Below, piece after piece: positions 35,289-36,148 of a stretch of 64,000 nt of DNA. This stretch comes from a bacterium (lineage in GTDB: Bacteria; UBA10199; 2-02-FULL-44-16; JAAZCA01): assembly GCA_963674695.2 (NCBI GenBank), contig CAXXGI010000002.1, positions 672,001 to 736,000 on the forward strand, given 5' to 3'. The notes under the pieces are model-generated. The model saw only the letters and a program-made list of their open reading frames with translations. It searched no databases and was not told where the DNA came from. A program made the position numbers and the translations under genes. The stretch's first letter is position 1, and each line of letters starts with the position of its first letter.

Positions 35289-36148
35289 AGCGCTGCCCCG
35301 TATCGCGACCGTGTGGTCCACCACGCTATACACAACATTCTCGAGCCGATCTTCGATCCGACGTTCATCCACGATTCCTATGCCACACGAAAGGAAAAGG
35401 GAACGCATGCAGCCATCGACCGCTTTCAGGAGTTCGCGCGAAAGAATCGTTACGCGTTGAAATGCGATGTGAAGCAGTATTTCCCGAGTATCCGGCACGA
35501 CATTCTGCTCGACTTGATCAAGCGAAAGGTCGGATGTTGCGCAACGATTCGGCTGATCGAAAAGATCTTGAATTCGCACGACGCCATGGCCAGTTTCTTG
35601 CATCCATCCATCCATCCATCCATCCATCCATCCATCCATCCATCCATCCATCCATCCATCCAGTAGGAATCCCTATTGGAAATCTGACTTCACAGTTCTT
35701 CGCAAATGTCTATCTCAACGGGTTGGATCATTTCGTCAAAGAACAGTTGAAGTGCCGATGTTATCTTCGGTATATGGATGATTTTGTCCTCTTCCACCGG
35801 GACAAACAGTTCTTGTGGACAGCCAGGGGGGCGATTCAGGAATATCTTGAGGGTCTGCATCTCTCCATGCATGAGGGGAAGTGTCGGGTTTTCAAGACGG
35901 CAACGGGCGTCCCTTTTCTCGGTATGGTCGTTTTCCCTCACTGTCGTCGATTGAAGAGGGGGAATGTCATCCGATTTAAGAGGAGGTTGAAGCGTTTTCA
36001 GCAATCGTATGGGAAGGGAACCATCGAATGGTTGCATATCAGGCAATCCATTCGATCTTGGATCGGTCATGCCTCTCATGCCGATACGGCAAGATTGAGA
36101 GAATATTTATTGGAGGATGTGGTCTTCCAGCGAAAGGAGGGTGATTGA
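35289..36148 (+). pseudogene. DGR reverse transcriptase, N-terminally truncated and frameshifted at a (CATC)15 tract
   Basis: Frame [14 protein letters not shown]...[12 protein letters not shown]...[11 protein letters not shown]. Frame [18 protein letters not shown]...RYMDDFV...PFLG...SWIGHA. The SQ motif is DGR-type. Confidence 0.93.
35601..35662. repeat. Tetranucleotide microsatellite (CATC)15CA
   Basis: Counted directly from the sequence. Confidence 0.97.

Follow-up and report, generated by a model that had tools for sequence, protein, structure and literature searches.

The window, by which we mean the whole stretch of DNA analysed here, comprises 64,000 nt of the forward strand of contig CAXXGI010000002.1 (positions 672,001-736,000; assembly GCA_963674695.2, UBA10199 lineage). 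Between positions 33789 and 36291 it holds a DGR in which the target gene is followed by avd, the reverse transcriptase (RT) gene and the TR. The features identified at this locus are given below in the coordinates of the window.

32059-33474, + strand: DDE transposase gene of an insertion sequence (Pfam DDE_Tnp_1_4, E 1.2e-37)
33789-34691, + strand: DGR target gene, an intact open reading frame of 300 aa with a fold of the FGE-sulfatase / lectin type (Pfam FGE-sulfatase, E 6.1e-52)
34552-34682, + strand: VR at the 3' end of the target gene, pairing with the TR over 131 nt
34721-34755, + strand: perfect stem of 16 bp with a 3-nt loop, just 3' of the VR (inverted repeat, 100% complementary)
34763-34849, + strand: avd stub, codons 1-29 only (20/29 identities by BLASTP to the bAvd-like protein of locus L112, 117 aa, over its residues 1-29)
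34861-35279, + strand: DUF559 cassette with imperfect inverted repeats of 44 nt at 34861-34904 and 35236-35279 (75% complementary)
34906-35286, + strand: DUF559 open reading frame (Pfam DUF559, E 5.4e-43), extending 7 bases beyond the right inverted repeat
35289-35600, + strand: RT fragment that opens with SAAPYRDR and ends where the repeat begins, equivalent to about residues 76-179 in a full-length relative (RVT_1 profile positions 16-108; alignment)
35601-35662, + strand: perfect (CATC)15.5 repeat, which sets the frame (Tandem Repeats Finder, 100% matches, no indels)
35663-36148, + strand: C-terminal half of the RT with the SQ-type motif, YMDD and the thumb region, complete to the stop (RVT_1 positions 118-204)
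36161-36291, + strand: AAC-rich TR downstream of the RT, pairing with the VR and lying inside an open reading frame at 36145-36393

The TR (36161-36291) and the VR (34552-34682) differ at 21 of 131 nt, and 20 of the 21 mismatches fall at adenines of the TR. Such adenine-specific mismatches are the signature of a DGR, and they indicate that the DGR of the window worked at some time. DGR targets usually have a hairpin just after the VR, the position taken here by the 16-bp stem. The transposase gene lies directly 5' of the target gene.

The avd and RT genes are both incomplete. Only 29 of the 117 Avd codons are present in the window; in the closest relative, L112, the bAvd-like gene is complete (PF22296, 70 bits against a cut-off of 40). 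The place of Avd residues 30-117 and RT residues 1-75 is occupied by the DUF559 cassette, and alignment to three full-length relatives confirmed that the first 75 residues of the RT are missing. The DUF559 gene is present as a single copy in the genome and, with its flanking inverted repeats, looks like a small mobile cassette. The left repeat (34860-34902) was matched by many other contigs of three public sequencing runs, with a summed depth of up to 1242 in run X3, and the 24-nt palindromic core of the repeat gave 12 matches in the genome at no more than 4 mismatches, two of which are the window's own copy, counted once on each strand.

What is left of the RT is recognisably of the DGR type, in that RVT_1 is matched by both parts and the C-terminal half carries a (I/L)GxxxSQ-type motif and YMDD; this half is 53-75% identical to those of relatives over 155-162 aligned residues. 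In addition to the loss of residues 1-75, the reading frame is split at the repeat: the C-terminal half (35663-36148) is in a different frame from the upstream part, which as assembled runs into a TAG directly after the tract (open reading frame 35313-35666, ending in HPSIHPSIQ and the stop). A preliminary description made from the DNA letters had recorded a perfect (CATC)15 tract at 35601-35660 with the upstream RT motifs in one frame and the SQ/YMDD half in another, and had predicted that 16 or 13 units would fuse the two without a stop; it had also cautioned that this copy lacks the RT N-terminus and may be vestigial. Each of these points was borne out. Tandem Repeats Finder reports the same tract as 15.5 units ending at 35662, the flanking peptides are as described, the profile matches on the two sides (16-108 and 118-204) are in separate frames, the cassette stands in place of the N-terminal part, and the two parts fall into one open frame, running via YMDD to the native stop, when the unit number is altered by +1, -2, -5 or +4 but at no other number tested. 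The tract is the sole one of its kind in the 3.03-Mb genome, where the next longest tract of period 4 measures 25 nt.

The unit number of 15.5 in the window is taken from the assembly. Public contigs from three runs of one study enter the tract from both sides and end inside it, and none spans 35591-35670. That no contig crosses the tract would be compatible with an assembly or sequencing artefact, in which case the tract, or its length, would be in error and the RT of the window would not truly be split. We regard this as highly improbable, because contigs of all three runs reach into the tract from either flank, because independent assemblies from many sources carry tracts of this kind at the identical site, and because the tracts of the relatives are mostly 16-54 nt, which we judge to be shorter than a typical short read.

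Relatives of the locus were sought with the C-terminal half of the RT as query in 93 species genomes of the phylum of the window (a single class), and at E <= 1e-20 this gave 17 RT places in 14 of the 93 genomes; three weaker RT fragments with stops (E <= 1e-10) were left out of this count. At least four perfect units of 4 or 8 bases were present at the junction in 12 of the 17 places, with six unit sequences represented (CATC, CAGC, CAAT, TCAC, CAGA and CATCACTC).

Window: (CATC)15.5, out of frame, truncated
L112: (CAGC)9.5, out of frame, otherwise complete
L012: (CAGC)10.5, out of frame, otherwise complete
L125: (CAGC), at least 5 units, tract at contig end
L114: (CCAG)7.75, in frame
L115: (CATCACTC)4.6, out of frame, otherwise complete
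L118: (CAGC)8.75, out of frame, otherwise complete
L119: (CATC)8.5, out of frame, truncated
L120: (CAGA)4, in frame
L121: (TCAC)8, out of frame, otherwise complete
L122: (CAAT)12, out of frame, otherwise complete
L123: (CAGC)4, out of frame, otherwise complete
L113: decayed remnant of a repeat, CATCCATCCTTCC (one place)
G011 (twice) and G087: no repeat, in frame (three places)
L116: N-terminal half deleted (one place)

Among these genomes, which are relatives and not independent samples, nine of the eleven repeat-bearing places with both halves were out of frame and two (L114 and L120) were in frame; the three repeat-free places were all in frame. For seven of the nine out-of-frame genes, the match to a full-length RT extends from residue 1-5 to residue 344-350 with a single shift as the sole lesion, and the frame offset is 2 in some of the out-of-frame loci and 1 in others. 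The three closest metagenome matches were one with (CAGT)11, one with (CAGC)13.5 in frame, and a second example of the form in which the N-terminal half is deleted. Perfect intragenic repeats of a non-triplet unit were thus found in the window, at 11 other genome loci and at 2 metagenome loci. The peptide repeats of database proteins imply further units of CCGA, CCAA and 7 bases (periods of 7 residues), and the unit lengths in the clade are 4, 7 or 8 bases, none of them divisible by three. (CAGC)5 was confined to the RT locus in each of the genomes of five relatives. A single ancestral tract may have given rise to the tetranucleotide types, in which case they would not be independent inventions. 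At the DNA level the tract of the window is the longest (15.5 units versus 4-13.5 elsewhere), and one might speculate that this length would fit an expansion after constraint was lost.

Outside the clade such repeats were not seen at this position. No tract of 16 nt or more was present at the junction in any of 178 outside RTs, nor any repeat at the junction in 80 more distant, hairpin-bearing RTs of other phyla, in both cases among the matches listed. With a looser threshold of 12 nt and 3 copies, 0/21 viral, 0/80 genomic and 3/77 metagenomic RTs among the matches listed were positive, the 21 viral loci being those of 80 that matched the motif used to locate the junction; the three metagenomic cases were A12, (CTGC)3.25 and (CCGC)3. 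Most outside RTs have a conserved stretch of the YFPGDDLFTPxxRRRG type at this place. The clade itself was not found in viral contigs, in which the best match was 47% identical. A tree of 54 C-terminal halves, restricted to non-duplicate proteins that have the motif and at least 140 residues beyond it, placed the 44 rows of the clade apart from ten hairpin-bearing outgroup rows (SH-aLRT 99). Within the clade the repeat types and the repeat-free in-frame genes are intermixed, and the window is sister to the (CAGC) locus L112.

Arrays of other periods are frequent elsewhere in the genome of the window, which has 89 perfect arrays of 7-base units of at least 20 nt, together with 20 of 8-base and 17 of 9-base units; the longest heptamer array is (GTTCGATA)22.6 at C2:761784-761964, and an example within the window lies at 11110-11147. 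Arrays of period 4 are rare genome-wide, with three found. Loss of mismatch repair was ruled out as the cause of the repeats, as MutS and MutL domains are present.

The site of the repeat, immediately before the next conserved motif, had been described at the outset as a length-variable loop of RTs, and structure prediction agrees with this. An AlphaFold2 model of the in-frame allele L015, built from a 56-row alignment, had a mean pLDDT of 90.9 and a pTM of 0.86, and in it the repeat-coded residues form a coil between the helix at 159-176 and the GIPIGN strand. Nowhere else in the protein is the confidence as low as in these residues (block means of 70 and 61). Among solved structures, an in-frame relative matched 8ub7_A best (E 1.1e-52); this entry was named 'Reverse transcriptase' by its depositors and we take it to be the bRT of Bordetella phage BPP-1, and the insert falls in a gap of the alignment to it. 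The model and the alignment together support the view that the repeat codes for what is predicted to be a tolerant loop of variable length.

The strongest evidence for a switch is the polymorphism of the repeat among otherwise identical alleles. Proteins P0089 (346 aa) and P0218 (367 aa) are identical at 346/346 positions and differ by an insert of 21 aa, which is three extra 7-residue repeats. The C-half reading frames P0003, P0211 and L126 are 98-100% identical, and from their frames 7, 8 and 11 (CAGT) units, respectively, are inferred. One cluster at 90% identity, whose N-terminal parts are identical at 90/90 residues upstream of the repeat, contains the in-frame state and both OFF phases: P0279, P0281 and P0284 are in frame (351 aa), P0224 (231 aa) reads out of frame through the next motif, and P0276 and P0282 (188 aa) meet a stop right after the repeat. 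In the (CATC)/HPSI cluster P0296 (350 aa) is in frame versus P0236 (206 aa), which is out of frame, and two further protein clusters each hold two different OFF phases. The pairs P0231 and P0299, and P0223 and P0300, differ in repeat number, and several OFF forms were found on 4-7 contigs. Against polymorphism, short repeats were identical within the near-identical sets P0105/P0207/P0208, P0102/P0215 and P0006/P0301/P0302. The relatives thus have both ON and OFF alleles, as is characteristic of a contingency locus.

The preliminary description had proposed a slipped-strand contingency switch in a DGR RT, to be sought in related genomes behind an intact 5' end, and had staked this proposal on repeats in intact homologues and on variation in their length. 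Both were observed, as perfect non-triplet repeats are present at the same junction in relatives and near-identical alleles differ only in repeat number, and for the RT family as a whole the proposal is supported.

We consider it most likely, from comparison of these genes, that the repeat acts as a reversible on/off switch of targeted hypermutation in related bacteria. The loop between the helix that follows the KCD(I/V)xxYFPSI motif and the next motif (GIPIGN) would be encoded by the perfect tandem repeat, the unit number of which would change by replication slippage. About one third of the lengths would yield a full-length RT with a short, disordered loop of variable length, for example (HPSI)n or (QPAS)n, and at the other two thirds the ribosome would meet a stop at the repeat or soon beyond it and never reach the catalytic YMDD. 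At an OFF length no cDNA would be made and the VR of the target gene would be frozen, and targeted hypermutation would thereby be set ON or OFF in a heritable and reversible way. The tract in the window is quite probably the local copy of a slipped-strand switch that is conserved in one clade of DGR RTs, and a relic at this locus. The DGR of the window is itself a remnant, its switch a relic with the tract at an OFF length, and it is dead at any repeat number because the cassette has replaced most of avd and RT codons 1-75 and no second RVT_1 gene was found in the genome. A contig of run X2 that matches the window at 35288-35324 belongs to a different, related RT and continues upstream into an intact N-terminal part (LIYEPKQRLI), which indicates that an intact relative coexists in the community of the organism of the window.

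For 17 C-terminal halves (136 pairs) the median pN was 0.26 and the median pS 0.82, which is saturated; NG86 dN/dS was 0.06-0.18 in the 15 of 136 pairs with a finite dS, a ratio of limited value given the saturation of synonymous sites and the few computable pairs. From these substitution patterns both halves of the RT appear to be under purifying selection. If so, the half that is untranslated in the OFF state is kept by selection, and the lineages must have been in frame for much of their history. The out-of-frame relatives also bear the traces of mutagenesis, with 15/17, 19/23, 21/22, 17/19 and 16/17 TR/VR mismatches at adenines of the TR; the examined parts of L113, L114, L118, L119, L125 and L127 yielded no TR/VR pair. 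A gene that is intact apart from the repeat and shows signs of selection is therefore found in the relatives (7/9 out-of-frame genes; pN 0.26 versus pS 0.82) but not in the copy of the window.

The conservation of both halves in out-of-frame genes would also be expected if the frame were corrected at expression, by programmed ribosomal frameshifting or transcriptional slippage, so that the OFF genes are in fact expressed. This seems very improbable to us. The shift that would be needed varies by locus (offsets of 1 and 2, and two OFF phases within single clusters), and the unit sequence also varies between loci, so that there is no conserved slippery site. Moreover, in-frame alleles of the same genes exist and one OFF phase has its stop directly after the tract, and we know of no case of RNA polymerase slippage on units of 4-8 bases.

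A search with the N-terminal part of the window RT gave 85 proteins at E <= 1e-35, whose tails were classed by eye. About 27 of the 85 are clade RTs with both halves in one frame, at least 26 have a recognisable out-of-frame tail, 11 end in or just after the repeat (at a stop or contig end), 9 have an unclear tail, and 12 are outgroup proteins or have an unreadable junction; many public contigs are ~1-3 kb, so some of the short reading frames may end at contig ends and not at stops. The in-frame share of repeat-bearing alleles is about one third (2/11 loci; roughly 9 versus ~20 protein-cluster representatives, counted by eye).

A share near the chance expectation of one third would equally be found if the tract were merely a tolerated fragile site, that is, a slippery repeat in a permissive loop whose OFF alleles are decaying loss-of-function mutants with no selected role. 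Several observations fit this explanation. The abundance of perfect arrays of 7-9-base units in the genome of the window means that slippage-prone DNA is common there, and decayed copies of the RT are at hand in the window, L119, L116 and the stop-bearing fragments of genome G047. Deletions with one end at the repeat are also seen in L116, L128 and P0019. On the other hand, seven of nine out-of-frame genes have gained no second lesion despite the saturation of synonymous sites between lineages, and the C-terminal halves 3' of the shift are under what appears to be purifying selection. Perfect tracts have been kept at one site throughout the clade with no unit a multiple of three, both frame states occur among alleles with identical flanks, and in five relatives the repeat is restricted to the RT locus. 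On this balance we think the fragile-site explanation rather unlikely.

The deletions are alike in form. In L116 (G047:C49), L128 (from a metagenome) and P0019, avd codons 1-18 to 1-38 run straight into the GIPIGN motif of the RT, and the joint is the exact site of the repeat in relatives; such recurrent deletions may mark the tract as a breakage point. Genome G047 has four RT remnants in all, namely L116 with its N-terminal half deleted, L119, which has (CATC)8.5 and has lost both ends, and the stop-bearing fragments L023 and L024.

Returning to the reversible switch, an adaptive advantage is plausible, and this is put no higher because drift of the repeat number without selection on the frame gives the same in-frame share of ~1/3. 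We put at about even the chance that the repeat is a selected, second-order contingency device, maintained throughout a clade of chromosomal DGRs, which would by stochastic slippage freeze a good lectin-type variant and later reopen it to variation, with loop length perhaps tuning the activity of the RT when ON and the tract perhaps breaking at times to give the recurrent forms in which the start of avd is joined to the C-terminal half of the RT.

Tetranucleotide contingency loci are known from host-adapted bacteria, examples being (CAAT)n in lic1 of Haemophilus influenzae and the phase-variable mod methyltransferases. The DGR repeat is like them in being perfect, intragenic and of a non-triplet unit, in that the unit number sets the frame, and in that both states occur with identical flanks. 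It differs in that the gene it gates drives targeted hypermutation and is not a surface or modification gene, in that it occurs in uncultured bacteria from the environment, and in that the unit sequence varies widely at a fixed site. Mismatch-repair genes also have repeat switches, such as the 6-bp repeat of mutL in Salmonella, by which a mutator state is turned on or off genome-wide; here too a change of repeat length would toggle a mutation-generating state, but whereas mutL acts on mutation throughout the genome, the DGR repeat would gate mutagenesis of a single target gene. With the DGR of Bordetella phage BPP-1 (bRT, Avd, TR and VR) the system shares an RT with (I/L)GxxxSQ and YMDD motifs, adenine-specific TR/VR differences, a lectin-type target and, in relatives of the window locus, a bAvd-like accessory protein. 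It is unlike BPP-1 in that the solved RT has no residues at the repeat-coded loop and in that the TR of the window lies downstream of the RT. No repeat-based control of the BPP-1 DGR was described in the literature searched.

DGR RTs broken by a frameshift, nonsense mutation or insertion element, with TR and VR retained, were reported in the DiGReF survey (Schillinger et al., 2012; PMC3521204), and in its accessible sections they are attributed to sporadic inactivation or possible sequencing error and the concept of the contingency locus is cited. The DUF559 replacement in the window is of the same kind as those inactivated RTs, whereas those sections make no mention of a repeat that is conserved in position and occurs in both states among otherwise identical alleles. 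Full-text searches, with supplements and most subscription journals outside their scope, brought up no publication in which a repeat switches a DGR RT, and there was nothing on such a switch in the available portions of Doré et al. (2024) and Wu et al. (2018), in line with the initial view that this mode of DGR control is not known to have been described. What is most likely new here, as judged from gene sequences, is that simple-sequence phase variation, itself of a known kind, would gate a targeted hypermutator.

To our knowledge, DGRs are the only prokaryotic systems of targeted protein hypermutation, and how their cost is limited and good variants are retained is poorly understood. A heritable, reversible and stochastic gate within the RT gene would, if true, be a simple answer to both, and many RTs scored as frameshifted pseudogenes in DGR surveys would then be switched off and not dead. 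In annotation, where such a repeat splits an RT into separate calls, these should be merged and marked as phase-variable. VR, repeat and TR fit within ~1.7 kb in the window and 1.6-1.8 kb in five relatives, so that single long reads could link the frame state to VR diversity.

One repeat-free locus of the clade is organised differently. L117 (G011:C1:13000-27865) has two identical RT copies without a repeat, 5.9 kb apart and each with a TR, together with several VRs, and 16/18 and 19/21 of the TR/VR mismatches fall at adenines of the TR; L117 is a duplicated, multi-target DGR.
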